A DNA stretch of 64,000 nt from Okamejei kenojei (lineage: Eukaryota). Where the stretch lies: NCBI GenBank assembly GCA_035221665.1, contig CM069153.1, positions 23,870,001 to 23,934,000 of the forward strand. The letters run 5' to 3'. The notes below the pieces were generated by a model that was given only the letters and a program-made list of their open reading frames with translations, was not told the origin of the DNA and did no database searches. This document shows, in pieces, positions 1-59,022 of this stretch; the first letter of the stretch is position 1, and each line of letters starts with the position of its first letter. The translations under genes were made by a program, and so were the position numbers.

Positions 1-988
1 GTTTTGGGTCAAAATTCTTCTTCAGACTGATGTAGGATGGGGTGGGGGGTGGGGGACGGGGAGAGGAAAGGAAAAAGGAAGAGGAGGAGCCCGAGGGCTG
101 AGGGAGAGCTGAGCAGGGGAGGAGACAGCAAGGGGGTACCGGAAGTTGGTGAATTCTATGTTTATGCTGCAAGGGTGCAGACTGCCCAAGCGGAATATGA
201 GGTGGTGCTCACTCTGGCCATGGAGGAGGCCCAGGACAGAGAGGTCGGATTCGGAATGGGAGGGGGAGTTGAAGTGCTGAACCACCGGGAGATCAGGTTG
301 TTAATGCGGACCGAGCGGAGGTGTTCGGCGAAACGATCGTCAAGCCTACACTTGGTCTCACCGATGTAGATCAGCTGACGCAATAGATGAGGTTGGAGGA
401 GATGCAGGTGAACCTCTGTCGCACCTGGAACGACTGCTTGGGTCCTTGAATGGAGTCGAGGGGGGAGGTAAAGCAACAAGTGTAGCACCTCTTGCGGTTG
501 CAAGGGAATGTGCCCGGGGAGGGGGTGGTGCGGGAGGGAAGGAAAGAATTGACCAGGGAGCTACGGAGGGAGCGGTCTTTGCGGAAAGCAGACGGGGGGG
601 GTGGGGGAGATGGGAAGATGTGGCGAGTGGTGGGGTCATGTTGGAGGTGGCGAAAATGACGGAGGACTATTTGTTGCATGTGACGGCTAGTGGGGTGAAA
701 GGTGAGGACTAGGGGGACTCTGGCCCTTGTTACGAGTGAGGGGATGGTGAGAGAGTGCAGTGTTACGGGGTATGGAAGAGACCCTGGTGAGAGCCTCATC
801 TATAGTAGAAGAGGGGAACCCCCGTTCCCTGAAGAATGAGGACATTTCCGATGCCCTGGTGTGGAACACCTCATCCTGGGAGCAGATACGACGTAGAAGG
901 AGGAATTGGGAGTAGGGGATGAAGTCCTTACTGGAAGCAGGATGGGAAGAAGAGTAGTCTAGATAGCCATGGGAGTCAGTGGGTTTAT
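1..988 (-). mobile_element. Penelope-like retroelement fragment (RT C-terminus, GIY-YIG endonuclease, 3' end with degenerate hammerhead motif)
   Basis: Frameshifted minus-strand ORFs give FQVRQRFTCISSNLIYC..YIGETKCRLDDRFAEH..HFNSPSH..LIFRLGSLHP..NIEF, the vertebrate PLE GIY-YIG domain. Positions 1-30 reverse-complement to a decayed TCTGAAGAAG..GACCCAAAAC. Confidence 0.85.
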
Positions 989-2701: not shown

Positions 2702-2857
2702 CAGTGAGCATCAGATTCACAAAAGATAGAAGAGAAAAGTGCATCATCTTTGTACTTAAACCTAACCTATGAAACAGATGTAAATTCAGATCAGTTCATC
2801 AGATCAAGATCTTGATCAGGGCACAATCAAGATCTTGAGTGTTTAGATGTAACCTTA

Positions 2858-2952
2858 AAAGACGCAAAGTGCTGGAGTAACTCAGTGGGTCAGGGAGCAT
2901 CTCTGGAGCACATGGGTAGGTGATGTTTTGGGCCGGGACCCTTCTTCAGACT
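2858..2952 (-). mobile_element. Short PLE-derived hammerhead-headed unit (decayed)
   Basis: Reverse complement reads AGTCTGAAGAAGGGTCCCGGCCCAAAACATCACC...GATGCT...CTGAGTTACTCCAGCAC. Confidence 0.75.
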
Positions 2953-3709: not shown

Positions 3710-6663
3710 ATCAAGATTCAAGATTCAAGAGAGTTTATTGTCATGTGTCCCAGATAGGACAATGAAATTCTTGCTTTGCTTCAGCACAACAGAATATAGT
3801 AGGCATGAACACAGAACAGATCAGTGTGTCCATATATCATTATATAAATATATACACACATGAATAAATAAACAGATAAAGTGCAAATGAACAGTTAATG
3901 CTCTATTAATGTTCAGAGTTTTGTTTAATAACCTGATGGCTGTGGGGAAGAATCTATTTCTGAACCAGGACATTGCAGTCTTCAGGCTCCTGTACCTTCC
4001 ACCTGAAGATAGCAGGGAGATGAGTGTGTGGCCAGGATGGTGGTGTCGTTGATGATGCTGCCAGCCTTTTTGAGGCAGTGACTGCGATAGATCCCCTCTA
4101 TCGTAGGGAGGTCAGAGCCGATGATGGACTGGGCAGCGCTTATTACTTTTGTAGTCTTTTCCGCTCCTGTGCGATCAAGCTGCCGAACCAAGCCACGATG
4201 CAACCAGTCAGCATGCTCTCTACTGTGCACCTGTAGAGGTTAGAGAGAGTCCTCCTTGACATACCGAATTTCCGTATTCTTCTCAGGAAGTAGAGGCGCT
4301 GATGTGCTTTCTTTATAATGGCATCAGTGTTCTCGGACCAGGAGAGGTCTTCAGAGATGTGCACGCCAAGGAATTTGAAGCTCTTGATCCTTTCCACCAT
4401 CGACCCATTGATATAAACGAGACTGTGGGTCCTCATTCAACCCCTTCCAAAGTCCACAATCAGTTCCTTGGTTTTGCTGGTGTTGAGGGCCAGGTTATTG
4501 TGCTGGCACCATTTGTTCAGTTGGTCGATCTCTCTTCTATACTCTGACTCGTCCCCATCAGTGATATGTCCCACAACAGTGGTGTCGTCAGCAAACTTGA
4601 TGGAGTTCGCACTATGACCGGCTACGCAGTCATGAGTATAGAGTGAGTACAGCAATACAAACAGTCTGCGGTCTGTGGATGAGGAAGTCAAGGATCCAAT
4701 TGCAGAGGGATGCGCAGAGACCCAGATCTGAGACCATGGTAACCAGCCTGGAGGGGATGATTGTATTAAATGCCGAGCTGTAATCATCGAGTAACAGCCT
4801 GACATATGTGTTTTTGTGGTCCAAGTGGTCCAGAGCAGAGTGGAGAGCCAGCGAGATCGCATCCACCGTTGATCTGTTGTGGCGGTAAGTGGGTCCAGGT
4901 TTTTGTCGAGGTAGAAGTTGATTTGCGCCATGATCAACCTCTCAAACCACTTCATCACCACCGACATTAGTGCCACTGGTCGATAGTCATTGAGGCACGT
5001 CACCTTGCTCTTCTTGGGCACCGGTATAATTGATGCCCTTTTAAAGCAGGTGGGAACCTCAGAAGTGAGAGGTTGAAAATGTCCGTAAAAACTCCAGCCA
5101 GTTGGTCCGCACAGGTTTTTAGAACAAGACCGGGTATACCATCAGGTCCAGGCGCTTTTCGAGGGTTCACCCCTCTGAAGGATTTTCTGACGTCGGCCTC
5201 TATGACTGAGTGAAATACCATCACAGCGAATGGGGGCTCGAGAAGGCACATCAGTATTCTCCCTATCAAAGCGTGCGTAAAATGCATTGAGCTCGTTAGG
5301 GAGTGATGTTTTTCCGACATTCGAGCTGCCTCCTGATTTTGCCTTGTAGTAGGTGATAGCATTCAGGCCCCGCCACAACTGCCGAACAACTGTCTCATCC
5401 TCCAGCCTAGAGCAGAAGTCGTATCTGGACTTCTTGTAAACCACTGAATCAACAGACATGAATGCCCGGTGTCTGGTCTTCAGAAGAGTGAGGATCTCAA
5501 AGTTCATCCAAGGCTTCTAATTGGGAAACTGTTGGAAGGTTTTTGTAGGGATGCAGTCCTCCACACATTTCTTCATGAAGAAGTCTGTAACGACTGTGGC
5601 GTATTCGTTCAGGTCCATTGCTGAGTTCCTCCCCCCCCCCCCCCCCAACCAGCTCTGTACCGTCCTCACCTCTGGGGGTGCGCTCTTCAATTGCTGCCTG
5701 TAGGCAGGAAGAAGCAGCACCGCGGTGTGGTTGGATTTACCGAAGTGAGGGCGAGAGATAGGCATTCTTGATGGTGGTGTAGCAGTGGTCGAGGGTTTTG
5801 GGTCCTCTGGTGCAGCAGAGACATGTTGGTGGAAGTTAGGGAGCGATTTTGTAAGGTTTGCTTTATTGAAATCCCTAGCTATGGTGGCAAAAACCTCGGG
5901 GTAAGACGTCTGGTGTTTGTTGACCATGGCGTGCAGCTCCTCCAGTGCCAGATGGATGTCTGCCTGGGGTGGGATGTAGACCGCATTCTGAATAATGGAG
6001 GTGAATTCCCTCGGAAGGTAGAAGGGGCAGCACTTCACCACCAGATGTTCGAGGTGTGGAGAGCAGGAGTTGGACAGGACTGCCACGTCTGAGCACCACG
6101 CAGAGTTGACCATGAGGCAGACGCCCCCTCCTCTCTCTTTCCCAGATGCCTGCATACGGTCCATACGGTGGATGGAGAACCCTTCAGGCTGGACCGCTGA
6201 GTCTGGGGAGCTGGGGGTGAGCCATGTCTCTGTGAAACAGAACTCAGAGTATTCCCTCAGCTCCCTTTGATAAAGCAGTCTTGCCCTTAAGCCCTCCACT
6301 TTATTTTCTAGTGACTGTACGTTAGCCAGTAGGATAGTAGGGAGAGGGGGCCGAAGTCCTCTCCACTTCAGTCTGCCCTGTAGTCCTGTCCGACGGCCAC
6401 GTTTCCGTACTCCATGGAGCCCTTCTTGGTGTTTGAAGGTAGAGTACTTACAGGTCTCTGTGAGGTCGGGGAATCCCCTGAGATCAGGAATTTCCATACA
6501 GTCGGCACCTCCAGCTCCGTTGCTGCCGGGGGATCCTGCCCAATGGCCTCGATTCTGGACTCCCTGAAGACCTCCCCGGTGTTTGCAGGTAAGGTTCTTA
6601 CTGTATCTGCGCGCCTCCGCGAGGTTGGGGATTCCCTTCTGTTCGGGGATTCTCTTACCGGCA
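3710..6663 (-). mobile_element. Rex1/Babar-type LINE, near full length but frameshifted (APE endonuclease + RT)
   Basis: ORF 5517..6497 has LPTILLANVQSLENK..FCFTETWL..GGGVC..VYIPP (endonuclease). RT motifs: [61 protein letters not shown]. Tail TGACAATAAA + (TCTTGAA)n. Confidence 0.9.
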
Positions 6664-7430
6664 TTACATGGTAAATGGTAGGGAATTGAGGAATGCTGTG
6701 GAACAGAGGGATCTAGGAATAACTGTGCATAGTTCCCTGAAGGTGGAATCGCATGTAGATAGGGTGGTAAAGAAAGCCTTTGGTGTGCTGGCCTTTATAA
6801 ATCAGAGCATTGAATATAGGAGTAGGGAAGTAATGTTAAAATTGTACAAGGCATTGGTAAGACCAATTCTGGAGTATGGTGTACAATTTTGGTCGCCTAG
6901 TTATAGGAAGGATGTCAACAAAATAGAGAGAGTACAGAGGAGATTTACTAGAATGTTGCCAGTGTTCCAGCAACTATGTTACAGAGAAAGGTTGAACAAG
7001 TTAGGTCTTTATTCTTTGGAGCGCAGAAGGTTAAGGGGGGACTTGATTGAGGTCTTTAAAAATGATGAAAGGGATAGACAGAGTTGACGTGGATACGTTT
7101 TTCCCATTGAGGGTAGGGAAGTTTCAAACAAGAGGGCATGACATGAGAATTAAGGGACAGAGGTTTCGGGGTAACGTGAGGGGGAACTTCTTTACTCAGA
7201 GGGTGGTGGCTGTGTGGAATCAGCTTCCAGCAGAAGTGGTGGAGGCAGGATCGATTTTAACATTTAAGAGTAAAGTGGATAGGTATATGGACGTGAAGGG
7301 AATGGAGGGGTATGGTCTGAGTGCAGGTAGATGGGACTAGGGGAAAACAAATGGCCGGCACGGACTGGAAGGGCCGAGAGGGCCTGTTTCCGTGCTGTAA
7401 TTGTTATATGGTTATATGGTTATATGGTTA
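6664..7430 (+). mobile_element. CR1 LINE 3' fragment (young subfamily; near-identical copy at 56330-57076)
   Basis: LYKALVRPILEYGVQFWSPSYRKD..ERVQRRFTRM..LERRRLRGDLIEVFK; (TTATATGG)n tail. Confidence 0.92.
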
Positions 7431-9984: not shown

Positions 9985-10810
9985 TGTAGAAACAAGGAAC
10001 TGCAGATGCTGTTTACACCAAAGGATGCAAAGTGCTGGAGTAACTCAGCGGGGTATGCAGCATCTTTGGAGAGAAGAAATGGGTGACGTTTGGGTTGAGC
10101 CTTCTTCAGACTAGTCAGGGGAAAGGGAAATGAGATGTAGACAATGATGTAGAGAGATATAGAACATGAATGCCGATTCACACCCCTGCTGATTCATTAC
10201 ACTGGCTCCCTGTGTCACAAAGGATTAACTTTAAAATTGTATTATTAACATTTAAAGCGCTTCATAACCTTTCCCCAGTTTAACTCACAGACCTCCTTCA
10301 GACTTACACCCCCTCCCGCTCCCTGCGGTCTTTATCAGCAGGTCTACTGGCACTACCACCCATCAGCCTCAGCACAATGGGCGCCAGGCTGCCAAGCTGC
10401 ACCTGAACTTTGGAATTCACTTCCCCCACACATCCGCATACTGGACTCCATGACAGAATTCAAAACCGCTCTTAAAACCCATCTTTTTAAACTAGCTTAT
10501 TCATTTTAACTGCAACAACTGCATCTTATTTTATATCAATCTTAACTCGTTGTGCTATGCTTTGTTGCTTACTGTATGTGTTATTGTTGATGTTTTAATT
10601 ACTGGTGCTTTGTTGCTTATTGTATGTTTATTACTGACATTATATGATGTAAGGTGACCTTGAGTGTCTTGAAAGGCGCCATTAAATAAATGAATGAAAG
10701 ATACACACAATGTAACGATGATAATGTAAGAGGCCATTGTTAGCTGTTTGCTAGGAGAGAACAGGAACCTGGTGCGACTTAGGTGGGGGAGAGATGGAGA
10801 GAGAGGGAGA
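9985..10810 (-). mobile_element. PLE 3' end with hammerhead-headed unit, interrupted by an L2 insertion
   Basis: 9985-10113 is the unit (GGTGACGTTTGGGTTGAGCCTTCTTCAGAC); PLE 3'UTR-like sequence resumes after 10696. Confidence 0.7.
10173..10689 (+). mobile_element. L2 LINE 3' fragment with 7-bp TSD
   Basis: Translates with frameshifts to HWLPVSQRINFKIVLLTFKALHNL..YTPSRSLRS..LWNSLPPHIR..FKTALKTHLF. L2 tail GTAAGGTGACCTTGAGTGTCTTGAAAGGCGCC. ATGAATG at 10166-10172 and 10690-10696. Confidence 0.85.
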
Positions 10811-11254: not shown

Positions 11255-12920
11255 TCTTTGTGACCCCTGATTCTGGACTCACCCAACATTGGGAACATTT
11301 TTCCTGCATCCAGCTTGTCCAGTCCTTTTATAATTTTATATGTTTCTAAAAGATATCCCCTCATCCTTCTAAACTCCAGTGAATACAAGCCTAGTCTTTT
11401 CAATCTTTCCTCATATGACAGTCCTGCCATCCCAGGGATCAAACTCTTGAACCTACGCTGCACTGCCTCAATCACAAGGATGTACTTCCTCAAATTAGGA
11501 GACCAAAACTGTACACAATACTCCTGATGTGGTCTCACCAGAGACATATGCAGAAAAACCTCTTTACTCCTATAACTGAAATCCTCTTGTTATAAGGCCA
11601 ACATTCCATTAGCTTTCTTCACTGCCTACTGTACTTGTAAGCCAACTTTCAGTGACCGGTGTACAAGGACGCCCAGGTCTCGCTGCACCTCCCCCTTACG
11701 AACCTAACCCAATTGAGATAATAATCTGCCCCCTTGTATTTGCCGCCAAAGTGGATAACCTCACATTTATTTATATTATACTGCATCTGCCACGCATCTG
11801 CCCACTCACTCAACCTGTCCAGGTCACCCTGCAACCTCCTAACATCCTCTTCATAGTTCACACTGCCACCCAGCTTTGTGTCATCCATAAACTTGCTAGT
11901 ATTGCTCCTAATTCTCTCTTCCAAATCATTAATATATATGGTAAACAGTTGCGGCCCCAACACCGGGCCTTGCGGCATTCCACTCGCCACTGCCTGCCAT
12001 TCTGAAAAGGACCCGTTCACTCCTACTCTTTGCTTCCAGTCTGCCAACCAATTTTCTATCCATGTCAACACACAACCCCCAATACCATGTGCTCTAATTT
12101 TAGTCACCAATCTCCCGTGCGGGACCTTATCAAAGGCTTTCTGAAAGTCTAGATACACTACATCCACCGGCACCCCTTCATCCATTTTACTTGTCACATC
12201 CTCAAAAAATTCCAGAAGATTAGTCAAGCATGATTTCCCTTTCATAAATCCATGTTGACTTGGACTAATCCTTTTACTGCTATCCAAATGCCTCATTATT
12301 ACCTCTTTAATAATTGACTCCAGCATCTTTCCCACCACCAAAGTCAGGCAAACTGGTATGTAATTCCTTGTTTTCTCTCTCACTCCTTTCTTGAAAAGTG
12401 GGATAACATTAGCTATCCTCCAATCCTGAATCTATTGAACATTGGAAAATGATCACCAATGCACTATTTCTAGAGCCACCTCCCTGAGGACCCTGGGATG
12501 CAGACCATCAGGCCCAGGGGATTTATCATCCTTCAGTCCCTACCCAATACTATTTCTCGCCTAATGAATTTTTTTTTTCAGTTCCTCTACCTCCTTAGAT
12601 CCTCTGTCCTCCAGTACATCTGGGAGATTGTATGTGTCTTCCTTGGTGAAGACAGATCCGAAGTGCCTATTCAACTCTTCTGCCATTTCCTTGTTGCCCA
12701 TAATAATTTCACTCGTGTCTGCCTTCAAGGGACCCACATTTGACTTTGCTGCTCTTTTTCCCTAAAAATATCTAAAGAAGCTTATACTGTCTTTCTTTAT
12801 ATTCCTGGCCAGCTTCCCTTCATACTTCATCTTTTCAGCCTGTATTGCCCGTTTTGTTTCCTTCTGTTGTCCTATGAAAGTTTCCCAATCCTCTAGCTGC
12901 TCTTTGCTGTGTTACACATC
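11255..12920 (-). mobile_element. CR1 LINE ORF2 (RT) fragment
   Basis: ORF 11649..12383 QHGFMKGKSCLTNLLEFFEDVT..VYLDFQKAFDKVPH..SGMPQGPVLGP..YINDL..KFMDDTKLGG. Confidence 0.93.
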
Positions 12921-14409: not shown

Positions 14410-14555
14410 GATGCACACAGTCCCTTGCCCAGAGTAGGTGAATCGAGGACAAGGGGACAAAGGTTTAAGCTGAAAGGGAAAAGATTTAATAGGAATCTGA
14501 GGGGTAACTTTTTCACACAAAGGGTGGTGTGGGTATGGAACAAATTGCCAGAGGA
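14410..14555 (+). mobile_element. CR1 3' fragment
   Basis: AGGTTTAAG..GATTTAATAGGAATCTGAGGGGTAACTTTTTCACACAAAGGGTGGT. Confidence 0.75.
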
Positions 14556-15303
14556 TCCAACGGGATCCCAATACTAGCTGCATCTTCCCATCTCCACCCC
14601 TTTCTGCTTTCCGCAGAGACTGTTCCCTCCGCAACTCCCTGGTCAACTCGTCCCTTCCCACCAAAACCACCCCCTACCCAGCTACTTTCCCCTACAACCA
14701 CAGGAGATGCAATACCTGTCCCTTTACCTCCCCTGTTGGAATCTATCCAAGGACCCCAACAGTCTTTCCAGGTGAGGCAGAGGTCCACTTGCACCTCCTC
14801 CAATCTCATCTGCTGTATCCCTTGCTCCAGGTGTCAAGTTCTCTACATCGGTGAGACCAAGCGCAGGCTCGGCGATCATTTCGCTGAACACATCCGCTCA
14901 GTCCGTCTTAACCTACCTGATCTCCCGGTTGCTCAGCTCTTTAACTCCCCCTCCCATTCCCAATCTGACCTTTCTGTCCTGGTCCTCCTCCATTGTCAGA
15001 GTGAGGCCCAGAGCAAATTGGAGGAACAGCACCTCATAATTCGCTTGGCTAGCTTACACCCCAGCGGTATTAACATTGACTTCTTTAACTTCAAATAGCT
15101 CTTGCTTCTCCTCTCTCTCTCTCCATTCCCTCCCCCTTCCCAGTTTTCCCACCCATCTTACTGTCTCCAACTACATTCTATCTCTGTCCTGCCCACTCCC
15201 CTGAAATCAGTCTGAAGAAGGGTCTTGACCCGAAAAGTCACCCATTCCTTCTCTCCAGAGATGCTGCCTGTCCTCTGAGTTACTCCAGCATTTTGTGTCT
15301 ACC
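14556..15303 (+). mobile_element. Penelope-like element 3' part (GIY-YIG ORF, 3'UTR, hammerhead unit)
   Basis: ORF 14529..15098 TCTSSNLICCIPCSRCQVLYIGETKRRLGDHFAEH..LEEQHLIIRLASLHPSGINIDF, followed by the unit at 15208-15303. Confidence 0.9.
15208..15243 (+). ncRNA. Minimal type-I hammerhead ribozyme motif
   Basis: CTGAAGA (15212-15218) + A + stem II GGGT/CTTG/ACCC + GAAA + AG + TC. All core nucleotides are present; stem III differs from the family consensus GAAACGTC by one base. Confidence 0.65.
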
Positions 15304-15304
15304 T

Positions 15305-15895
15305 GTCAGAGTATTGAGTATAGAAGTTGGGAGGTCATGTTACAGTTGTACAAGACAGTGGTGAGACCACATTTAGAGTATTGTGTACAGTTTTAGTCAC
15401 CATGTTATAGGAAAGATGTTATCAAGCTGGAAGGTGCTGAGAACATTTATGAGGATTTTGCCAGGACTCGAGGACCTGAGGGGGAGGTTGAGCAGCCAGG
15501 ACTTTATTCCTTGGAGCACAGGATAATGCTGATCTTAAAGAGGTGTATAAGATCACGGGTGGAATAGAGAGGGTGCATTCACAGTTTTTTATCCAGAGTA
15601 GGGGAATAAAGAACCATAGGAGGTACGTTTAAGGTGAGGGGGGAGAGGGAGCGTTAATATGAAACTGAGGGGATTTTTTTACACAAAGGGTGGTGGGTGT
15701 ATGGGACGAGCTGAGGAGGAGGGACTTGAAGCAGGCACTTAAACAACATTTTAAAAAATTGGACAGTTACATGAATAAGATAGGTTTAGAGGGACATGGG
15801 TCAAATGTAGGCAAGTGGAACTAGTATAGATGGGACATCTTGGACGGCATGGCAAGTCGGGCAGAAGGGCTTGTTTCTGTGCTGTTTGACTATAA
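15305..15895 (+). mobile_element. CR1 LINE 3' fragment (decayed)
   Basis: GTATTGAGTATAGAAGTTGGGAGGTCATGTTACAGTTGTACAAGAC..GAAGGGCTTGTTTCTGTGCTGT. Confidence 0.85.
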
Positions 15896-16237
15896 CTAAA
15901 AACTCAGCTGTCTTTCCTCTAATCCCGGAGTCCTCTACAGTGGAAACATTTTATTTTTTAGCGGTCCGTATGAAACTATCCGCAAGGAAAGCAAGGGTTG
16001 CAGACTGCAACCCTCTTCCGCGAACAGGAGCGAGTTACCGTAAACCTCCCAATCATGAAAACAACCACTGGACCTTAAATCAACGAGAGCCTGACGGCTG
16101 GGACAAAAGTGCAGCTTTGCATTTGAGCTACAGTATATTGAGTGTCTGCGTTTATTTGTGTATTGTTTGCCTCTGTGAAGTAATTCGTTCTTGTAAATAC
16201 ATTTCAATAATTTGAAAAATTAAAACATTTTAACTAT

Positions 16238-16452
16238 GCGTAAGATGGAACTGCAGATGCTGGTTTACACCGAAGATACACAAAATGCTGGAGTAACAAC
16301 AGGTCAAGCAGCATCTCTGGAGAAAAAGAATAGGTGACGTTTGGGGTCGAGACCCTTCTTCAGAGACCCTGTGAAGGGTCTCCACTCGGAACGTCACCTC
16401 CTCCCGAGATGCTGCCTGACCTGTTGGGTTACTCCAGCACTTCGTGTAAACC
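16238..16452. mobile_element. Head-to-head inverted pair of hammerhead-headed units
   Basis: Left arm GCTGGAGTAAC..GCAGCATCTC..GGTGACGTTTGGGGTCGAGACCCTTCTTCAG; right arm GAAGGGTCTCCACTCGGAACGTCACC..GAGATGCTGCC..GTTACTCCAGC. Confidence 0.8.
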
Positions 16453-16499
16453 TTTTAACTAGACAATTGACGTAGTCTCCCACGTCGGTTAAGGACTAC

Positions 16500-17049: not shown

Positions 17050-17267
17050 TGTGTAGGAAGGAACTGCAGATGCTGGTTTACGCCGAAGATAGACACAAAA
17101 TGCTGCAGTAAAGACAGGCAGCATCTCTGGGTCGGAGGGATGGGTGACGTTTCGGGGAGAGATCCTTCTTCAGACGTAAAGGGTCTCGACCCGAAACGTC
17201 ACCCATTCGCTTCTCTATAGAGATGCTGCCTGTCCCGCCGAGTGACTCCAGCATTCTGTGTCTATCT
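17050..17267. mobile_element. Head-to-head inverted pair of hammerhead-headed units, nested in an older related pair (~16955-17400)
   Basis: ..GGGTGACGTTTCGGGGAGAGATCCTTCTTCAGAC / AAGGGTCTCGACCCGAAACGTCACCCATTC..GAGATGCTGCC..TGTGTCTATCT. Confidence 0.85.
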
Positions 17268-17479
17268 GAAGTGAAGGTCTGAAGGGGGGTCCTGACCCGC
17301 ACTATCACCTGTCCATCCCCCGCACAGATGCTGCCTGGCCCTCTGAGTTCCCCAGCACTTGGTATTTTGTTCAAGATTTCAGCACCTACAGACCTTTGTG
17401 ACTTCAAGTGTTTGCAATAAATAATAAGCTTAAGTAATAAATAATTCGTTCTGCTCTTTATTGCTGCTCTTCGCAGCTG

Positions 17480-19989: not shown

Positions 19990-20135
19990 TGTGTAGGAAG
20001 GAACTGCAGATGCAGGTTTACACCGATGATATAAAGCAGCATCTGGAGAAGGGTTCCGACCCAATGCATCACATATTTCTTTTCTCCAGAGATGCTGCCT
20101 GACCCGCTGAGTTACTCCAGCACTTTGTGTCTATC
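19990..20135. mobile_element. Asymmetric inverted hammerhead-unit element
   Basis: GTGTAGGAAGGAACTGCAGATGC.. joined to GAGAAGGGTTCCGACCC..GAGATGCTGCCTGACCCGCTGAGTTACTCCAGC. Confidence 0.7.
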
Positions 20136-20324
20136 GTGGGAGAAGGGTTTTGTTGGAGAGGTTAATTGGATTGATCCTCAAGAGAGTTTGAAAGAATGAG
20201 AGATTCTCTCATGAAAAACTCCCAAACTTTTGACGAGGTGTGCAATGATAATTATAGGACACTAATCAGCTCGTGTATCTGTTGCTGACATCACGTCTAG
20301 GTTCAGGAATCATGGATCATGAAA

Positions 20325-20473
20325 AATAGGCCAAAACTGCAGATGCTGGAGAATCGAACACAAAATGGAGAAACTCATGCAGCAGCATCTAAGGAGCCGA
20401 AAGAAGGGTCTCGAAAACGTCGCCTATCTCCTTCGCTCCTTAGATGCTGCTGCCGCTGAGTTTCTCGTACTTT
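20325..20473. mobile_element. Inverted hammerhead-unit element (second subfamily)
   Basis: GAGAAACTCA..GCAGCAGCATCTAAGGAGC / AAGAAGGGTCTCGAAAACGTCGCCTATCTCCTTCGCTCCTTAGATGCTGCTGC..TGAGTTTCTC. Confidence 0.7.
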
Positions 20474-20590: not shown

Positions 20591-21055
20591 ACACACTAGG
20601 GGCAATTTACAGAGGTCAATTAACCTACAAATCATCACGTCTTTGGAATGTGGGGGAAACCGGAGCACCCGGAGGAAACCCACACGGTCACAGGGAAAAC
20701 GTACAAACTCCAGCGATGATTTGAGTCAAGATCTTTCTTTAAAAGAAGGGTCTTGACCTGAAGCGGCGCCTATCCCTTCCCTCCACAAATGCTGCCTGAC
20801 CCACTGAGCTCCTCCAGCGCCCTGTGTTTTCCAACATCTGCAGTTCCATTGTCTTTCTGTGTACTTCTTATGTTTGCCACAGAAAGAAAGTAATGGAGCT
20901 TGTGATCCTACCTTACTTGACTCAAATCATCGCTGGAGTTTGTACGTTTTCCCTGTGACCGTGTGGGTTTCCTCCGGGTGCTCCGGTTTCCCCCACATCC
21001 CAAAGACGTGATGATTTGTAGGTTAATTGACCTCTGTAAATTGCCCCTAGTGTGT
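20591..21055. repeat. 140-bp near-perfect inverted duplication of a SINE segment (20591-20730 / 20916-21055)
   Basis: By eye the arms differ at one position and both include the non-SINE junction CAGCGATGATTTGAGTCAAG. Confidence 0.9.
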
Positions 21056-24249: not shown

Positions 24250-25330
24250 GCGACAAAGTGCTGGAGTAACTCAGACAGCATCTCTGGAGAATGTGGATCG
24301 GTGATGTTTTGGGTCCGGACTTCTTCAGATTGACTGTGGTGGAGGGGAGGAGGTGGGGTGTTCATAAATTCATAAATGATAGTAGTAGAATTAGGCCATT
24401 TGTCCCATCGAGTCTACTCTGCCATCCAATCATAGCTGATCTCTGCCTCCTAATACCATTTCCTGTCTTCTCCTCATAACCCTTGACGCGCGTTCTAATC
24501 AAGAATTTGTCTATCTCTGCCTTAAAAATATTCACTGACTGCCTCCACAGCCCTCTGTGGCAAAGTTTTCCACAGATTAACTATTCTCTGACTAAATAAA
24601 TTCCTCCTCACCTCCTTTCTAAAAGAGCGGCCTTTAATTCTGAGGCTGACCTCTGGTCCTAGACACACCCACCAGCGGAAACATCCTTTCCGCATCCACT
24701 CTATCTATGCCTTTCATTATTCTGTAAGTTTCAATGAGGTCCTCCCTCAACCTTCTAAACTCCAGCGAGTAGCACAGCCCAGTGCTGTCAAACGGGATGG
24801 GACGAAAACTGGAAGAGAAGTGGGGCTGGACAAAGCATGGTGAATGATACAGATGAGGAGGGGGGGGGGGAAGTTGATAGGCAGCTGGTTGGACAGTCCA
24901 TAGATGAAAAGACTAAAGGTATGAGATAAGGATGGAAGAGGTGCAACTTGTGGAGCCAGAGGAAGGAATATAGATGGAAGGGGAGGGGGATGGAAGAAAG
25001 TGTAACGAAGATAGGCACAAAAAGTTGGAGTAACTCAGCGGGACAAGCAGCATCTCTGGAGAGAAGGAATGGGTGAGGTTTCAGGTCGAGACCCTTCTTA
25101 AATTAGAACTACTCCAATTGGGGGACAGGGAAGAGAGGGATGGTGGTCTTTGTAAGTTTGTTACCTACAAATGGAGAATTCAATGTTCATACGGTTAGGT
25201 TGTAGGTTACCAAAGTGGAATATGAGGTGCTGTTCCTCCAGTTTGCTTATGGCCTCACTCTGGTAATGGAGGAGGTCCAGGACAGAAAAGTCTGTATAGG
25301 AACGGGAACGGGAGTTAAAATGGTTCACAG
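24250..25330 (-). mobile_element. PLE 3' fragment with nested CR1 (24361-24790) and a nested hammerhead unit (~25007-25100)
   Basis: ORF 25161..25400 NHFNSRS..KLEEQHLIFHFGNLQPNRMNIEFS; units at 24250-24330 and 25007-25100. Confidence 0.75.
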
Positions 25331-25694
25331 TACATCCAGCAGGCTGATCCTCACTTTGTATCTTTGTCTTTTTTAAAAAGAAATAAACCAACACCTGCAT
25401 TTCCTTGTTTCTCCACTGACCTGAGGCTTACCTGCCGGAAGTTACCTGGCTTACACTGTCCTTCTGAAAGAAAGGAAGAACATTAGCTATCATCTAGTCT
25501 TCATCTACCACACCTGGGGATAATAAGATTGCAAAAATCTCAACAATCAATTCAACACAATACTTGAGAGATATAGCACAGAAACAGGCCCTGTGGCCCT
25601 GAGGCCCAACAAGTCTGCTCCAACCAGTGATGATCCCCTACACAAACACTATCATACACATTAGGGACAATTTACAATATTACCAAAGCCAAGA

Positions 25695-27702: not shown

Positions 27703-27827
27703 GGGTACACAAAAAGCTGGAGAAACTCAGCGGGTGCAGCAGCATCTAAGGAGCGAAGGAGATAGGCGACGTTTTGGGCCGATACCCTTCTTCAGACTCA
27801 TAGGCGACGTTTCGGGCCGAGACCCTT
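27703..27827 (-). mobile_element. Hammerhead unit with a tandem partial second motif, inserted in DIRS
   Basis: Minus strand: AAGGGTCTCGGCCCGAAACGTCGCCTATGAGTCTGAAGAAGGGTATCGGCCCAAAACGTCGCCTATCTCC. Confidence 0.75.
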
Positions 27828-28499
27828 ATTTGGTGTTCCATTGAACCAGAGTTTCATAATACGGTGTGATTCAACACCAATTCTGTGTTGCCATTGACCT
27901 TTACTTGATGATTCTCCTGTGGCAAACGAGATTATGTAACCATTCCAGGGGTCTTTAATTGATTGAACCCACGTGACTAACATATGCCATCATCATAATG
28001 TATCAACATGAAGCTGAGCATGCAGATATGCATATTTGCTCAATCACTCTTTAACCCATACAATGCCCGTAGGATCTGTAGATAGTTGATACCAATAAAA
28101 GAAGAATTGGTAAGTCATGCAAATCTGCTCCACCTCCAAACTCGAGATGATATTCACAATTTCGTGTCTGCCATAAATGGCAACTGTGAGCCCAATTTCT
28201 GAGCCAGTCTTGCAAGACAATCCTGGCCATTATACTGAGCCTCCCGAATTCTAACCTGCTTGAAATGCTAGTATTGTCCATTTTTACATGGTTAGACCGC
28301 TTGGTCTCACCAATATAGATCATCTGGCATCTGGAGCAGCGGATGCAGTAGATGAGGTTGGTGGAGGTGCAGATGAACCTCTGTCGGACCTGGAAGGACT
28401 GCTTGGGTCCCTGAAAGGAGTGGAGGGGGGAGGTGAAGGGACAAATGTAGCTGCTGTATTAGTGTCTAGATTCACATTCCCGGGAATCTTTCTTTGTCG

Positions 28500-28930
28500 G
28501 ACTGACCATTTTTGTCAGTTGTCCCCATATCCTGGGGATGTCTGCGGTTTGGGATCTGCATTGCTGGATTTCCCCTCCCCAGGAATCCATATAAATATAT
28601 AGATACCCGCAGTAACCCTCCCGGCACCCGGGCTGACCGTGCAGGTCAGTTTAACCCCATATTCTGGGATTACTGCGGTATGAAAACCGCATATGCTTGC
28701 ATTTCCCCTCCCCGGGGAACCCAGCCTTACCGTTATGGTCAGTTTTAACCCCATCTCCTGGGGACTACTGCAGTCTGGAAACCGCATATTCTTGGATTTC
28801 CCCTCCCCAGGAACCCAGGCTGACCATTCAGGTCAGTTTAACCCATATCTTGGGGACTACTGCGGTCTGGAACCGCATATTCTTGGGTTTCCCCTCCCTG
28901 GGAACCCAACGTTTAGAATCACTGACCGTG
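28500..28930. repeat. ~94-bp tandem repeat (~4.5 copies) in the DIRS 5' region
   Basis: Recurring CTGACC..GGTCAGTTTAACCCCAT..GGGACTACTGCGGT..AACCGCATATTCTTGGATTTCCCCTCCCC. Confidence 0.85.
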
Positions 28931-32925: not shown

Positions 32926-33392
32926 AGTGAGATAATGTGTGGGGAGGAACTGCAGATGCTGGTTTAAACAGAAAATAGACACAAAATACTGGAGTAACTC
33001 AGCGGGCCAGGCAGCATCTCTGGAGAGAAGGAATGGGTGGCGTTTCTGGCTGAGACCCTTAGTCATAGAGTGATAGTATGGAATTAGGCCCATCAGCCCA
33101 CTGAGCCCATGCCGACCATGACCACCCGTACACTAGTTCTATGTTATCCCTTTGCACCCTGCACACTTTGGGGAACTTTCAGAGGCCAATAAATCTACAA
33201 ACCCGCGCGTCTTTGGAATACAGGAGGAAACCGGAGAAAACCCACGGGGTCACCGGGTGAGCCTGCAAACTCCACACTGATAGCACCCAAGGTCAGGATC
33301 GATCCCGGGTCTTTGCCGCTGTGAGGCAGCAGCTCTACTGTTGTTATAAAAGGCCTGTTCCTCTGCTATACTCTTCTTTCTATGATTTTCAG

Positions 33393-33716: not shown

Positions 33717-33889
33717 GTGAGTAATATTGCACCAGGGAATTGATGAGTAAGTGAGATCATGTGTAGGGAGGAACTGCAGATGCTGGTTTAAATGGAAAAT
33801 GGACACAAAATGCTGGGGTAACTCAGCAGGCCGGGCAGCATCTGTGAAGAGAAGGAATGGGTGACGTTTCGGGACGAGACCCTTAGTCA

Positions 33890-34187: not shown

Positions 34188-34615
34188 AGATTCAGTTTAC
34201 ATATTAAATGCTGTGAGAATTGAGAAAATAGAAGGTTTTGATGGCGAAATATCAGATATTGATAAATTGTGCATCAAGTGGCCATTGTGGATGACAAGTA
34301 GAGAAGTCTTATTATTGATACACAAAGTTCATCAGTTTTCTGCTATTTGCAGAGAGCAAGCTGTAATCTATCCAGTCATTTCAAATGAAAGCTAAATAAA
34401 TGTGAAGGAACTGTACGATATTTGGCATTTCTGGCTCAGTGCCCTCCAATCTGCAACTCCAAACCCCCTTTATCCTGTATCTACCTGTCACTCACCAGGA
34501 TTTGTCATGCCCCCACCTTTTTTCCGGCTTTTCCCCCTCCCTCCTGCAGTCTTAAGAAGCATCCTGATCTGAAACTTCACCTATCCATGTCTTCCTGAGA
34601 TGCTGCCTGTGTTAA

Positions 34616-34833: not shown

Positions 34834-35404
34834 TTAACTCCGGCACTTTATTTTTGTTTGTAAACCAGCATCTGCATTTCCTTGTTTTTCCAACTTTCTT
34901 AAAGTTTCATAGGCACTTATTTAGTGCCTTTAATGGTATATATGGACATATGGAGTTGGCAGTGATGTCCCCTAGATAAACGTCCAGAAGTCCTAGTACT
35001 GGAAATCTGCATTGAGGATATTTGTTGAGTGTGTTATTTGGCTTGGACACTCCATTCATAGCAGCTTCTACAACTATTATCTCTAGATTTGCAGATAAGA
35101 CACCTTGACTGAGTAATGGAGAACTCTTAGCACATATTGTATCTCAGATTACTTTAATCTCATGGTTAATTTATGACCTGATCTATCATGTAATAAAGCA
35201 GTAGGTTTAATCTGTGTAGTGAGTCGTATGAATGCAAGCCTTTGTATATAGAAAGCGGGGAAAACAATATTTGCAATGCTGCATCTAATAAAAAATGAAC
35301 TGCAGATGCTGGTTAAACACAAAATGCTGGAGTAACTCAGCGGGTCAGGCAGCATATCTGGAGATTTTTTTGTGTGTTTTGTTTAGAGATACAGCCCACC
35401 ATGT

Positions 35405-37090
35405 CCGAGCTCTATCTAATGTTTTTTGAATGCATCCGGTGAGTTGGCCTCCACTGCCTTCTGAGGCAGAGAATTCCACAGATTCACAAATCTCTGGGCG
35501 AAAAAGATTTTCCTCATCTCAGTTCTAAATGGCCTTCCCCGTATTCTTAAACTGTGGCCCCTGATTCTGGACTCCCCCAACATCGGGAGCATGTTTCCTG
35601 CATCTAACGTGTCCAATCCCTTAATAATTGTTTTTATTTTTTTATAAGACATCCATTCATCCTTCTAAATTCCAGTGCATACAAGCCCAGTTCCATCATA
35701 TGTCCCGCTTTCCCGCCTCAACCTACACTACACTCCCTCAATAGTAAGAATGTACATCCTCAGGTTAGGAGACCAAACCTGCACACAACACTCCAAGTGT
35801 GGTCTCACCAGGGCACTGTACAACTGCAGATGGACCTATTTGCTCTTATACTCAAATCCTCTCGTTATGAAGGCCAACATGCCATTAGCTTTCTTCATTG
35901 GCTGCTGTAGCTGCATGCTTACTTTCAGTGACTGATGTACAAGAACACCCAGGTCTCATTGCACTTCTCCTTTTCATAATCTGACATGATCAACACTTCA
36001 ACTCCCCCTCCCATTCCCAATCTGACCTTTCTGTCCTGGGCCTCCTCCATTGTCAGAGTGAGGCCCAGCGAAAATTGGAGGAACAGCACCTCATATTTCG
36101 CTTCGGTAGTTTACACGCCAGTGGTATGAACATTGCTTCTCTAACTTCAGTTAGCCTTTGCTTTCCCTAACCATCCCCTACACCTTCTGTTCAACCACTA
36201 GTCTTAGTGTCTCTGCCTACATTCTATATTTGCCCCGCCCCCTCCCATGACATCAGTCTGAAGAAGGGTCTCGACCCAAAACGTCGCCCATTCCTTCTCA
36301 CCTGAGATGCTGCCTCACCCGCTGAGTTACTCCAGCATTTTTGGGTCTACCATTCAAATAATAATCTGCCTTCTTGTTCTTGCCACCAAAGTGGATAACC
36401 TCATATTTATCCACATTATACTGCATCTGCCATGCATCTGCCCACTCATCCAACCTATCGAATTCACCCTGCATCCTCATTGCATCATCTTCACAGTTCA
36501 CCCTGCCACCCAGCTTTGTGTCATCTGCAACTTTGCTAATGTTACTTTTAATTCCTTCATCTAAATCATTAATATATATTGTGAATAGCTGCAGTCCCAG
36601 TACCGAGCCTAGCGACACCCTGCCAGTCACTACCTGTCATTCAGAAAGGGAACCGTTAATCCCTACTCTTTGTTCCTGTCTGCCAATCATAGAAACAGAA
36701 ACAAAGAAACTAGGTGCAGGAGGAGGCCATTCGGCCCTTCGAGCCAGCACCGCCATTCATTGTGATCGTGGCTGATCGTCCCCAATCAATAACCCATGCC
36801 TGCCTTAACCCTTGATTCCACTAGCCCATAGAGCTCTATCTAACTCTCTCTTAAATTAATCTAGTGATTTGGCCTCCACTGCCCTCTGTGGCAGGGAATT
36901 CCACAAATTCACAACTCTCTGGATGAAAAAGTTTTTTCTCACCTCAGTCTTAAATGGCCTCCCCTTTATTCTAAGACGGTGGCCCCTGGTTATGGACTCA
37001 CCCAATATTGGGAACATTTTTCCTGCATCTAGCTTGTCCAGTAATTTTATAATTTTATTTGTTTTTATATTCCCCCTCATCCTTCTAAAC
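35405..37090 (-). mobile_element. Two CR1 fragments with a nested PLE 3' fragment (35990-36351, plus strand, hammerhead motif at 36258-36285)
   Basis: YINDLDEGIKSNISKVADDTKLGG and FFIQRVVNLWNSLPQ; PLE part GGAGGAACAGCACCTCATATTTCGC..CTGAAGAAGGGTCTCGACCCAAAACGTC. Confidence 0.85.
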
Positions 37091-41116: not shown

Positions 41117-41962
41117 CCATGGAATGGTGTTGCATGGGAACAGGCCATTTGGCCAACAATGTATGCGCAGACCATGATGCCAATCTTAACTCATTCCATC
41201 AGCCCGGACATTGTATATATCCCTCCATTTTCTTCCTGACCAAATCCTGTCTAAACGCCTCTTAAATGTTGCTTCCAACACTTCCCCTGGTTGTGTGTTC
41301 CAGGCCTTTACTGATGTGTTAAGAAAACTTGCCTCGTAAATCTCCTTTAAACTATCCCCCTGTCAGCTTAAAGCTATATGCTCTAGTATTTGGCATTTCC
41401 ACACTGGGAAAAAGGCTGACTATCTACCTGCTCATTATTCTATAAACCTCTATCAACCTCCATCAAACCTCACTTAGCGTCCAGAGAAAACAATCCATGT
41501 TTGTTCAATCTCTCCTTTTAGAATTTAGAAAATTCTTTAATCAATCCAAAATCCAGGTAAACCCATTTTTGACCCTCTCCAACACCCCCACTTCTTTTCT
41601 GCAGTACGGCAACAAGATCTGCGCACAATACTCCAAATGTAACGTCACCAATATTTTGCGCAGTTACAACCTGACTTCCCGAATTGTCAACACCCTGACC
41701 GATGAAGGGAACTTCTCTACCAGCTTGACTACTTGTGTGTCACTTTCTAGGAGCTATGAACTTGCACGCCAAGATCCCTTGAAGCCTGAAGAAAGGTCTC
41801 GACTGGAAATATCACCTATTCCTTTTCTCCAGATGTGCTGTCTGACCCGCTGAGTTACTCCAGCTTTTTGTGTCTATCCCCAAGATCCCTCTGTACATTA
41901 GTGCTCCTAAGAGTCCTATCATTTATTGTATACATTCCTCTTGCATTTGACTTCCCAAAATG
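41117..41962 (-). mobile_element. Old CR1 fragment carrying a hammerhead-unit insertion (41780-41879) with 11-bp TSD
   Basis: CR1 motifs GCACAATACTCCAAATGT and TTGACTTCCCAAAATG; CCAAGATCCCT at 41769-41779 and 41880-41890 flanks CCTGAAGAAAGGTCTCGAC..TGTGTCTATC. Confidence 0.8.
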
Positions 41963-45039: not shown

Positions 45040-45145
45040 TCAGCACCCAAGCATCACCCTAGATTTCTGTGCTCTGGAGTGGGATTTGAACCCACAACCT
45101 CCCAACCCAGAAACGGGAGCACTAACCACTGAGCCATGATGCTGT
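45040..45145 (-). mobile_element. Old tRNA-derived SINE head (SacSINE/DeuSINE-like)
   Basis: Minus strand TGGCTCAGTGGTTAGTGC..GGTTGTGGGTTCAAATCCCACTCCAGAG (A and B boxes). Confidence 0.6.
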
Positions 45146-45889: not shown

Positions 45890-46985
45890 TTGGTTTAATA
45901 TCATTATCTATACTGAGATACACTGAGATGCTATCCAGTCAAATCATACCACACAGGAATAGTCATGTCATATACAAGTACAGTCGGTAGTAAAAGGAGA
46001 AAACACCAGAATGCAGAATATAGTATACAGTTATAGTGTTACAGTTACAGACAAAGTGCAGGTAAAAAAAAACAAACAGGTTCTCCAATGAGGTAGGTTG
46101 GAAGATGGAGTCACATCCTAGCACATGGGGGGACTACTCAGTTGTCTGATAACAGTGGGGAAGAAGCTATTTCTGAATCTGATGCAATGTGTTTTTAAGC
46201 ATTTCTATCTTCTGCTCGAGCGATTGATCAGTGGGAAAATGATCTTTGATAATATTGGCTGCGTTCCTGAGGCAGTGTGAAGTGTAAATGGAATTGATGG
46301 TGTGAAGCTAGCTTGCGTGATGAACTAGGACCCATCCACAGCTCTTTGCAAATTCTTGTGGTCTTGGGCAGAGCTGTCACTAAACCAAGTTGTGATACAT
46401 CCCAGAGGATAGACACAAAATGCTGGAGTAACTCAGCGGGTCAGGCAGCATCTCTGGAGAGAAGGAATAGGTGACATTTCAGGTCCAGACCCTTCTTCAG
46501 ACTAAGAGTCTGCGGAGAGGGAAACTAGAGGTATGAAAAGGTTCAGAAACTTTATAACTCATCCCGATAGGATGATGAGGTATCTGTAAACGTTGGCACG
46601 AGTAGTTACAGAATGGCAAACTTCCTTAGTCTTTTGGGAATGTTGGTGTGCATTATTGGCCCTAGCTTCAACATGGTTGGACCGGGACTTGTTGGTGATA
46701 TTTACAATACACCTTGGGACTGAAGGTCTCCACCATCTTCACTTCAACACCAGTGATGCTGACTGGGGCATGTACGCCACCTCATTTCCTGGTCAATAAC
46801 TTGCTCCTTCACCTTGCTGGTGCTGAGAGAGAGTTGTTGTCTTGTCCCCATTTTAATAAACTCTGTCTCCTTTCTGTACTCTGCCACATCATGGTTCACG
46901 ATCAGGCCCAACACAGTGGTGTCATCTGCAAACTTGTGAATGAAGTTGGAGCAGAATTTGGCTGTGCAGTACTGCGTCTGTAGGA
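45890..46985 (-). mobile_element. Decayed Rex1/Babar LINE 3' half with nested PLE unit (46411-46559)
   Basis: [24 protein letters not shown]. Nested unit, minus strand: GTCTGAAGAAGGGTCTGGACCTGAAATGTCACC, flanked by imperfect CATCCC..GGAT duplication. Confidence 0.75.
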
Positions 46986-48755: not shown

Positions 48756-49078
48756 CTTACTTGCTTATATGTGACTTTGGACTTTAGAGATGCAGTGTGG
48801 AAATAGGCCCTTCAGCCCACCGAGTCCATGCCAACCAGCAACCAACTGTACACTTGCACTATCCTACACTAGAGACAAATTACAGAAGCCAATAAACCTA
48901 GAAACTTGTACACCTTTGGAGTGTGGAAATTGCAGCACCTGGAGAAAACCCATAGGGAGAATGTAATCAAACCTGAGCCTCTTGCATTGTGCTTGTGTAT
49001 TCTTAATGTTAGGTCAAAAAAATATTCACTCATGTCATATATATCTAAGAGGTCAGAACTCCTAGTAACTTCCATTCC

Positions 49079-49220: not shown

Positions 49221-49281
49221 TCATGAACCCATAAGCACATGATATGTTTGCTTTGGAAACTGACACAACCATGCTACATTC

Positions 49282-49410
49282 AGTCAGAAGAAAGATCTCG
49301 ACCCGAAACATCACCCATTCCTTCTCTCCAGAGATGCTGCGTGCCCCGCTGAGTTACTCCAGCTTTTTGTGTCTATCTTCGATTTAAACCAGCATCTGCA
49401 GTTCTTTCAT
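49282..49410 (+). mobile_element. Solo hammerhead-headed unit with perfect 19-bp flanking direct repeat
   Basis: ACACAACCATGCTACATTC at 49263-49281 and 49411-49429; insert AGTCAGAAGAAAGATCTCGACCCGAAACATCACCC..CCAGCATCTGCAGTTC. Confidence 0.9.
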
Positions 49411-50230
49411 ACACAACCATGCTACATTCTGGCAGGCAGTGGCTAAATGTACAAAAACAAGGTTATGTGACAAATATTTCAACAGCCACTGCACTGAGAG
49501 GAAAGTGAGAGTAACAGTGGATTGGAAACAGGGAATAGAACCCGTGAGCTCAGATATTTTACACCATTGTGACAAAGGTATAAGTGGCCATGTGTTTTCA
49601 ACCCTAGAATGTGACTAGGGAGGTTCCGTACTAATAATGTTACCCCGAGGTGAATTAAACTGTGGTCTGTGGAGGAAAATGACAGACAACCTTTCAGGTT
49701 GGGACCCTTGTTAAGTCAGAAAAAGAGTCCTGCCCCAAGATGTCATCTGTCCATTCCTTCCACAGACGTTGCATGGCCTTTTTAATTATTTCATCAGTAT
49801 GTGCTTTGCCCACTATTCCAGCATCTGCAGTTCCTAGTGCCTCCATTGCCAAAGACATATTTGTTCAGTCAGTCATTACTTGGGGTGTTGATATATCCAG
49901 AGATCTACCCTTCACAATACTATGGCATCAGGAGGATCTTTCCGATGTTGGCATCTGCCGTCAGAAGGTTTATGAATGTTGACATGATCTACAGTAGGTA
50001 GCTTGCCTCAACAAAGGCATTTGAATATTCAAATTTAATACTGTCATTTGCAGTGATGGAAATGGGTTTAGGAATGTTGGTGACATTTCATTTAGGCGTT
50101 ATGAGCGGTCATAGCCATGCAAGAATACAAGAATGCATAACTTGTTTATTGTGTATTATATGTCATAGCTGCTTTCTGGCATCTCTCTCTCACTCTCTGT
50201 TTACATTACAAAATGTTGCATAATGGTATA

Positions 50231-56329: not shown

Positions 56330-57076
56330 AATGAGGAGGTAGCGAATTGAGGAATGCAGTTGAACAGAGAGATCTAGGAATAACTGTGCATAGTTCCCTG
56401 AAGGTGGAATCTCATGTAGAAAGGGTGGTAAAGAAAGCTTTGGTGTGCTGGTTTTTATAAATCAGAGCATTGAATATAGGAGTAGGGAAGTAATGTTAAA
56501 ATTGTACAAGGCATTGGTAAGACCAATTCTGGAGTATGGTGTACAATTTTGGTCGCCTAGTTATAGGAAGGATGTCAACAAAATAGAGAGAGTACAGAGG
56601 AGATTTACTAGAATGTTGCCAGGGTTCCAGCAACTATGTTACAGAGAAAGGTTGAACAAGTTAGGTCTTTATTCTTTGGAGCGCAGAAGGTTAAGGGGGG
56701 ACTTGATTGAGGTCTTTAAAATGATGAGAGGGATAGACAGAGTTGACGTGGATAAGCTTTTTCCATTGAGAGTAGGGAAGATTCAAACAAGAGGACATGA
56801 TTTGAGAATTAAGGGACAGAAGTTTAGGGGTAACATGAGGGGAAACTTCTTTACTGAGTGAGTGGAAGCTGTGTGGAATGAGCTTCCAGTGGAAGTGATG
56901 GAGGCAGGCTTGATTTTATCATTAAAAAGTAAATTGGATAGGTATATGGACGGGAAAGGAGTGGAGGGTTATGGTCTGAGTGCAGGTAGATGGGATTAGG
57001 TGAGAGTAAGTGTTTGGCACGGACTAGAAGGGCCGAGATGGCCTGTTTCTGTGCTGTAATTGTTATATGGTTATAT
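56330..57076 (+). mobile_element. CR1 LINE 3' fragment
   Basis: ORF 56445..56861 is almost identical to the 6668 copy; TTATATGG tail. Confidence 0.92.

Positions 57077-58986: not shown

Positions 58987-59022
<36 letters not shown>

Follow-up and report, generated by a model that had tools for sequence, protein, structure and literature searches.

A Penelope-like element and its terminal unit

The stretch of DNA analysed here (64,000 nucleotides from the skate Okamejei kenojei, hereafter the window) holds, some 15 kb from its start, the truncated end of a Penelope-like element (PLE), where a GIY-YIG endonuclease coding sequence is followed by an untranslated region and by a short repeat unit with a putative minimal hammerhead ribozyme at its head. 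The parts of this copy, and the other fragments that hold both coding sequence and unit, are as follows.

14556..15098, plus strand: 5'-truncated PLE body, with a frameshifted linker region, then the GIY-YIG endonuclease at the C terminus (stop codon 15096-15098)
15099..15208, plus strand: pyrimidine-rich 3' UTR, or upstream part of the pseudo-LTR, common to the copy at 36255
15209..15241, plus strand: putative minimal hammerhead motif, composed of the 5' strand of stem I (15210-15211), C3-A9 of the core (15212-15218), the extra A (15219), stem II (15220-15231), G12-A15.1 (15232-15235), positions 15.2/16.2 at 15236-15237 (A-G here, C-G in the family) and U16.1-C17 (15238-15239); the cut is predicted to fall between 15239 and 15240
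15240..15303, plus strand: remainder of the pseudo-LTR downstream, as far as the short 3' end; within it, 15246-15259 has a predicted pairing with the 5' half of the core
1..985, minus strand: longest PLE fragment, with the end of the reverse transcriptase (RT) region (by eye, start approximate), CX4CXXC linker, GIY-YIG and 3' UTR
35987..36351, plus strand: PLE 3' fragment, with the end of GIY-YIG, 3' UTR and a unit lacking G12
25004..25331, minus strand: endonuclease (EN) fragment at 25173-25331 together with, at 25004-25099, a unit from which C3-G5 is missing

In three fragments, 1 to about 985 (minus strand), 14556-15303 (plus) and 35987-36351 (plus), the unit is immediately preceded by GIY-YIG coding sequence, and these body-linked copies bear out the original prediction that, in the larger fragments, the unit follows the GIY-YIG ORF and its 3' UTR. 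The EN fragment at 25173-25331 (minus), about 75 nt from its unit, is a near-linked fourth case. In the 15-kb copy C3 is found 113 nt past the GIY-YIG stop codon; the motif head of the longest fragment is cut by the window edge at 1-28.

The ORFs of the window are too decayed for Pfam: four of them yielded a single GIY-YIG match, below threshold (E=0.13), and the translation of 14565-15095 yielded none. Their relatives number 2960 at E<=0.001. Among the eight scanned with Pfam, three pass the GIY-YIG cut-off (P0105, P0088, P0127) and two that of RVT_1 (P0127, P0097). The homologs are RT plus GIY-YIG proteins of 810-880 residues, aligning in the order RT, C-x4-C-x2-C linker, GIY-YIG, and the linker is intact in the window at 374-799 (minus). 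One named match, to a skate protein, has 68% identity across a third of the query. Protein-based locus searches of viral and prokaryote collections returned no relative. A linker of the form CX2-5CXXC marks the Neptune and Nematis PLEs (Craig et al., 2021, PMC8557442), and by this linker and its C-terminal GIY-YIG domain the carrier would be an EN+ PLE of the Neptune/Nematis type. The order of RT, CX2-5CXXC linker and C-terminal GIY-YIG is common to the carrier and to the elements described in PMC8557442 and PMC3846280; the window differs in having no full-length copy and no RT core, and the class is to be understood as Neptune or Nematis jointly. By contrast, Poseidon elements are described without the zinc-finger-like linker that the window element possesses (PMC11167929).

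The skate gene model for neuromedin-U receptor 1 (P0002) ends in about 60 residues of the carrier's GIY-YIG frame, which is either an exonised PLE piece or an annotation error, and P0003 fuses a DUF4518 piece to the same PLE end. Within the window, an isolated GIY-YIG fragment at 28298-28451 (minus) adjoins 28629-28908, where self-matches reveal several tandem copies of a unit of about 90 nt.

A dispersed family of units

Thirty segments of the unit are found in the window, all within 1-50 kb: 29 match, at a cut-off of E<=0.05, a profile that was derived from six of the window's copies and covers the tail, and the last is the edge-cut copy at 1-28. The same profile found 0 segments in the reversed window used as a control, and no copy between 50 and 64 kb. 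A simple query with 15150-15310 gives 25 matches by blastn and 26 by nhmmer, and by these searches every one of the 15 positions listed in the original prediction falls on a copy of one unit. A high-copy PLE family bearing the hammerhead motif is supported; the proposed density of one copy per 4 kb was an underestimate. The 28-nt head on its own has six matches in the window with at most three mismatches, none exact, against 0 in 100 shuffles. Besides the copies given above and the composite arrangements described later, the units are the following.

2857..2952, minus strand: solo unit, G12 and G16.2 lost
9993..10112, minus strand: tailed unit with a stem II deletion; its upstream UTR is of a second type
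20743..20849, plus strand: solo unit, starting inside the core
24250..24331, minus strand: decayed unit
32942..33060, minus strand: tailed unit that begins with the extra A before stem II
33764..33884, minus strand: tailed unit that likewise begins with the extra A before stem II
34548..34610, plus strand: decayed unit head, with a tail piece at 34835-34883
35294..35364, minus strand: unit truncated downstream of the motif
41780..41879, plus strand: solo unit without tail, core intact, G10.1-C11.1 pair lost
46407..46503, minus strand: the one copy to combine a complete core, a 4-bp stem II and a pairable 15.2/16.2 (motif 46473-46500)
49282..49410, plus strand: solo unit with tail, starting 3 nt before C3; U4 mutated

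The copies at 32942-33060 and 33764-33884 (minus) lie 820 nt apart and share an identical start base; their flanks are similar and resemble a LINE or SINE 3' end. They may have arisen by duplication in place or belong to a composite element. A run of N at about 48920-49065, a little ahead of the 49282 copy, marks an assembly gap.

Fit to the minimal hammerhead

The motif could be aligned in 24 of the 30 segments, the excluded ones being the edge copy, one that starts inside stem II and four without the motif. The majority sequence fits the published minimal hammerhead (min-HHR): both core boxes, the extra A, G10.1-C11.1 and a palindromic C-G at 15.2/16.2 are all there. The CUGANGA...GAAA...UH core with an extra A after A9, as originally proposed, is that of the majority sequence. 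The extra A is present in 23/24 copies, while 10.1-11.1 is G-C in 14/22 and G-U in 5. Helix II has 4 bp, with 87.9% of cells paired. Positions 15.2/16.2 are C-G in 12/24 copies and pairable in 16/24, and this majority C-G makes positions 15.1-16.1 self-complementary. C is also the majority base at 15236 in all four public runs described below (7351 of 9519 RNA reads). Helix I is short, with 2 bp, U-A and G-C. This weakness had been anticipated (a stem of about 2 bp), and a descriptor that demands a stem I of at least 3 bp finds 0 sites in the window; with at least 2 bp it finds two, 15212-15239 (plus) and 46473-46500 (minus), for a mean of 0.05 over 60 shuffles. Published helices I range from 2 to 6 bp, the listed 2-bp ones both being made of G-C pairs, and the motifs of ray-finned fish have 3 bp (PMC4209133).

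Rfam hammerhead families gave no match at E<=1 on the window, nor at E<=10 on two copies. Those Rfam matches that the unit does receive are chance, miRNA-type ones, caused by inverted pairs and by a competing hairpin described below. A motif scan of viral contigs found 0. When metagenomes were scanned with a 21-mer from downstream of the motif, 10 loci came up, but blastn showed no relation between any of them and the unit.

One might ask whether the likeness is a chance match that was amplified with the repeat. The silence of Rfam, the lack of covariation (below) and the marginal stem I would go with this idea. Against it, the motif occupies the usual place of a PLE hammerhead, and not only its core boxes but also three further traits, namely the extra base, G10.1-C11.1 and the palindromic 15.2/16.2, agree with what is described in PMC4209133. 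Furthermore, the descriptor finds on average 0.05-0.22 sites per 64 kb of shuffled sequence, which makes a chance site within one 100-nt PLE end very unlikely. Such an accident, already largely refuted, is extremely improbable, and the sequence supports a PLE-borne minimal type-I hammerhead motif.

Decay of the copies

All core bases are kept in four of the 16 copies that have the 5' half (15212 plus, 17173 minus, 41786 plus and 46500 minus), and among these only 15212 and 46500 have a 4-bp stem II. Two intact copies had been named beforehand; the one at 15212 stands, whereas the second is really located at 46473-46500 (minus), not at 46481-46502, and the core-intact copies are four in all. 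Even the 46500 copy keeps its pairs only via two G-U wobbles at CpG sites, G10.1-U and U15.2-G. As for the 15212 copy, the A at 15.2 leaves its 15.1-16.1 tetramer without self-complementarity; judged on its letters, this copy fails the dimer model, the needed tetramer being lost. The activity implied for both is left unsupported.

G12 sits in a CpG and is changed in 9/24 copies, six times to A. This is well above the other core positions (17/207; p=0.0003), and matches the rate at other CpG guanines (13/48; p=0.42). That most copies carry point mutations, often from CpG decay, had been correctly seen. Two checks suggested with the original prediction gave nothing within the window: the difference between substitution in the core and downstream is not significant (8.2% versus 12.0%; p=0.15), and stem covariation among the 24 decayed window copies stays at shuffle level (278/500 and 216/500). 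Such negative results are to be expected if the window copies are dead copies of a few source elements, and they do not refute the motif in the source element. Variants common to at least three copies may say more about the latter: none is found at the 12 non-CpG core positions versus 13/55 downstream (p=0.10), and two of the three shared stem variants keep a G-U wobble pair. This pattern is a hint of constraint on the source elements. The window copies themselves are likely to be inactive relics.

A competing fold

Folding predictions have the 5' half of the core base-paired with the pyrimidine tract that lies beyond the cut site. For the profile consensus, the hammerhead is predicted to be 6.5 kcal/mol less favourable than the best fold; for the two best copies the predicted gap is 10-12 kcal/mol. 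Stem II reaches a predicted probability of at least 0.5 in 2/13 full-length copies, both of them without G12, and helix I has a probability of about 0. To be sure, the competing hairpin is no stabler than in shuffles (z=0.06) and is thus, in itself, no evidence of design.

These predictions bear on the question whether the motif was already non-catalytic in the source elements, helix I having eroded to 2 bp, the pyrimidine tract sequestering the core and the sequence persisting as a promoter or protein-binding region. The 2-bp stem I, with no descriptor site at 3 bp or more, and the predicted hairpin would fit this account, as would the fact that no copy starts at the cut site (below). There are also precedents: hammerhead mutants are reported to be without effect on insertion of the anole element in vitro (PMC11167929), and most Naiad/Chlamys elements thrive without the motif according to PMC8557442. 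Yet the diverged copies share no non-CpG core change, their shared stem changes mostly keep a wobble, and the hairpin is no stabler than shuffles; moreover, the anole motif fails to cut alone but is reported to cut with its protein (PMC11167929). We hold a non-catalytic source to be unlikely.

Tails, inverted pairs and target sites

The unit has two 3' ends, about 35 nt apart: among the 29 profile matches, 13 reach the end of the tail and 11 finish between profile positions 92 and 107, the other 5 having different ends. The tail extension also appears as a loose end behind 15301 in public runs. An optional tail of 30-40 bp is known in PLEs (PMC8557442, PMC3846280), and Frangieh et al. (2024, PMC11167929) tie it to two reverse-transcription start sites; the 3' extension of the unit is, as we read it, this optional tail. 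In addition, the window contains five head-to-head inverted pairs and two head-to-tail arrangements.

16237..16452, both strands: inverted pair A, head-to-head; tail on the minus arm only, arms 65/74 identical
17050..17397, both strands: inverted pair B (17050-17267), then a diverged copy in head-to-tail arrangement (17277-17397)
19993..20136, both strands: inverted pair C
20329..20470, both strands: inverted pair D, second subfamily
49666..49835, both strands: inverted pair E, diverged subfamily
27705..27827, minus strand: partial tandem, a truncated 28-nt head followed by a full unit without G12

Direct repeats of at least 9 nt were found at the edges of 3/19 candidate insertions checked. 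The solo unit at 49282..49410 is flanked by a 19-nt repeat (49263-49281 and 49411-49429), that at 41780..41879 by an 11-nt repeat (41769-41779 and 41880-41890), and a 9-nt repeat (16228-16236 and 16453-16461) encloses the whole of pair A, the layout of which is like that of Pen2a_Av (PMC3846280). Five-prime truncation, partial tandems, head-to-head inverted copies, an optional tail and target-site duplications are all features in which the family resembles Neptune and Nematis elements as described in PMC8557442 and PMC3846280.

Where the copies begin is a more singular matter. Eighteen of the 30 segments start within profile positions 1-10, a stretch of 10 nt at the motif head, 7 extend upstream into the pyrimidine-rich UTR (2 of them by eye) and 5 start further in; none starts at the cut site (profile position 32). 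One of the 18, segment 25099, is ambiguous, lying near the EN fragment, and subfamily-specific UTRs could inflate the cluster. The duplication-flanked copies, for their part, show true ends at the motif head. With such ends, and with both sides of the cut site kept, the template of insertion was likely uncut RNA, by analogy with the anole element.

Public sequence data, consisting of three contig sets and a single raw run of poly(A) RNA, were aligned to 14540-15320 at 80% likeness; they stem from three organisms, perhaps not including that of the window, and the RNA run possibly comes from a related species. In the four runs the summed depth of the unit is about 8-12 times that of the GIY-YIG part, a ratio that is not a copy number. 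RNA reads of the unit come in equal measure from its two strands, in keeping with passive transcription as part of host RNAs. There is no pile-up of RNA ends in the poly(A) run, at the cut site or elsewhere; this is a weak test, as it covers about 6% of the run and any signal would be diluted by thousands of dead copies. In each of the four runs, loose 5' ends are concentrated at 15207-15210, led by 15207, 15209 and 15210, and the flanks at 15209/15210 are unrelated (agreement about 0.3). Head-to-tail joints from 15301 to 15209 recur in 25, 22 and 2 contigs, among the joints listed. A splice acceptor in the pyrimidine tract was also considered; it finds no support among the 15 joints listed (709 further ones exist).

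Taken together, the cluster of starts in 10 nt, the loose ends with their unrelated flanks, the recurrent head-to-tail joints and the clean duplications around two solo copies would suit a unit of 95-130 nt that forms a non-autonomous family in its own right, comparable to SINEs or retrozymes, and that has defined ends, comes from separate source genes and is mobilised in trans; retrozymes have indeed been proposed to derive from pseudo-LTRs (pLTRs) (bioRxiv 10.64898/2026.07.22.740005). However, no sequence separates solo from body-linked copies, no array in the window exceeds two units, and the copies carry the PLE tail and inversions. Besides, a circle produced by self-cleavage would not give ends fixed at the motif head. 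We find an independent family of this kind rather improbable, and prefer to see the units as ends of the PLE itself.

A proposed origin of the units

The reading that we favour, with a probability of about 0.8, is that the repeats are retrotransposed, mostly 5'-truncated pseudo-LTRs of a Neptune/Nematis-type PLE, headed by a minimal type-I hammerhead motif. Cutting after GUC was likely confined to the source element and dependent on help there, and the window copies are likely inactive relics. By reference to published elements, the source element would transcribe a pLTR-ORF-pLTR RNA, and its protein would bind the pLTR end and nick DNA. Published PLE work further suggests that the RT-endonuclease would start reverse transcription 65 and 100 nt downstream of the cut site, producing the optional tail, and that synthesis would usually stop early, with the consequence that the terminal unit should far outnumber the body. 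In the source RNA two motifs may pair through their self-complementary 15.1-16.1 tetramers, and the protein of the element would be needed to undo the competing hairpin and to hold the 2-bp stem I. Cutting after C17 would then occur only when two copies are paired by the palindrome in RNA refolded by the protein.

Why synthesis would stop at the motif head may have to do with a transcript start, with fold-back or with separate short source genes. Pairs C and D fit, by eye, an exact fold-back origin of inverted junctions, and this stays a guess, as the joints 15208-15210 to 15245-15252 do not match exactly the register of the predicted fold-back pairing. A variant of the whole scheme would have a catalytically silent head, in which the 2-bp stem I and the masking hairpin stop cutting and the 95-130 nt unit results from reverse transcription that begins internally, at the 5' pseudo-LTR's tail sites, and continues to a fixed RNA 5' end just before the motif, where it runs off. 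This would explain starts at the motif head and never at the cut site. We deem it doubtful; if true, the lineage would be a natural loss-of-function case in which to ask what purpose PLE hammerheads serve. With its marginal helix I and its 5' ends clustered at the motif head, this very successful family is a useful test case for hammerhead function.

Relation to known PLE ribozymes

The original prediction carried an air of surprise that the literature does not justify, as min-HHRs of this kind in PLEs have been in print since Cervera and De la Peña (2014, PMC4209133). That work already gives the extra base after A9, the palindromic 15.2/16.2 and the dependence on dimers, as well as thousands of dispersed solo copies and opposite-strand pairs. 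The window motif resembles those described there in its core boxes, in the one base between 9 and 10.1, in G10.1-C11.1, in the absence of a helix III loop, in the palindromic C-G at 15.2/16.2 and in its setting, 3' of a GIY-YIG ORF, mostly in solo dispersed copies with opposite-strand pairs. It differs by a helix I of 2 bp with one U-A, and by a helix II that is short, at 4 bp. Cartilaginous fish are absent from Table S1 and Fig. S3 of the same paper, and the present case extends PLE minimal hammerheads to a cartilaginous-fish family outside the 2014 survey list. Our literature search found no paper describing the unit family in skates, and none on hammerhead ribozymes of Penelope elements from skates; Repbase or the supplements of Li et al. 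(2026) may have it.

The best studied counterpart is the Poseidon element PAc of Anolis carolinensis (PMC11167929). As proposed for the window element, a hammerhead is followed there by two reverse-transcription start sites that define a tail and uncut RNA is the main template; as in the window, no read ends at the cut site. Unlike the window element, in which the ATG after the motif opens a frame that closes after 17 codons, PAc has an ORF that starts inside the hammerhead; and the activity of PAc was measured, that of the window motif being putative. The units also share with non-LTR retrozymes (PMC7229834; bioRxiv 10.64898/2026.07.22.740005) a short non-coding nature, a type-I hammerhead, a relation to pLTRs and some head-to-tail dimers. 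In contrast with retrozymes, they are dispersed, 95-130 nt long and endowed with a minimal motif. Li et al. (2026) recognise a retrozyme by at least two consecutive tandem units with complete motifs; no such array occurs in the window, where both tandems (17179/17277 and 27827/27798) are without a complete motif. The families of the single chondrichthyan in Li et al. (2026, bioRxiv 10.64898/2026.07.22.740005) average 363 bp.

The role of PLE hammerheads is still open (PMC8557442). The window holds no new ribozyme class and likely no active copy; it shows how heavily PLE hammerhead relics fill such genomes.

Other elements in the window

On the minus strand, 45078-45137 has a tRNA-like Rfam match (31.8 bits, for a gathering score of 29) and is likely the head of a tRNA-derived SINE. 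By eye, 52338-55172 (minus) contains ORF pieces like those of a DIRS-type retrotransposon, with an RT bearing YLDD and an RNase H-like piece, and 60981-63026 (minus) contains pol-like pieces of a broken Gypsy-type LTR retroelement, with RT, RNase H and integrase. Decayed LINE fragments, also recognised by eye, lie at 4437-6794 (minus), 6593-7087 (plus), 11649-12431 (minus), 56394-56861 (plus) and 58987-60228 (minus); they are pieces of AP endonuclease and RT, of a CR1-like and of a second type.
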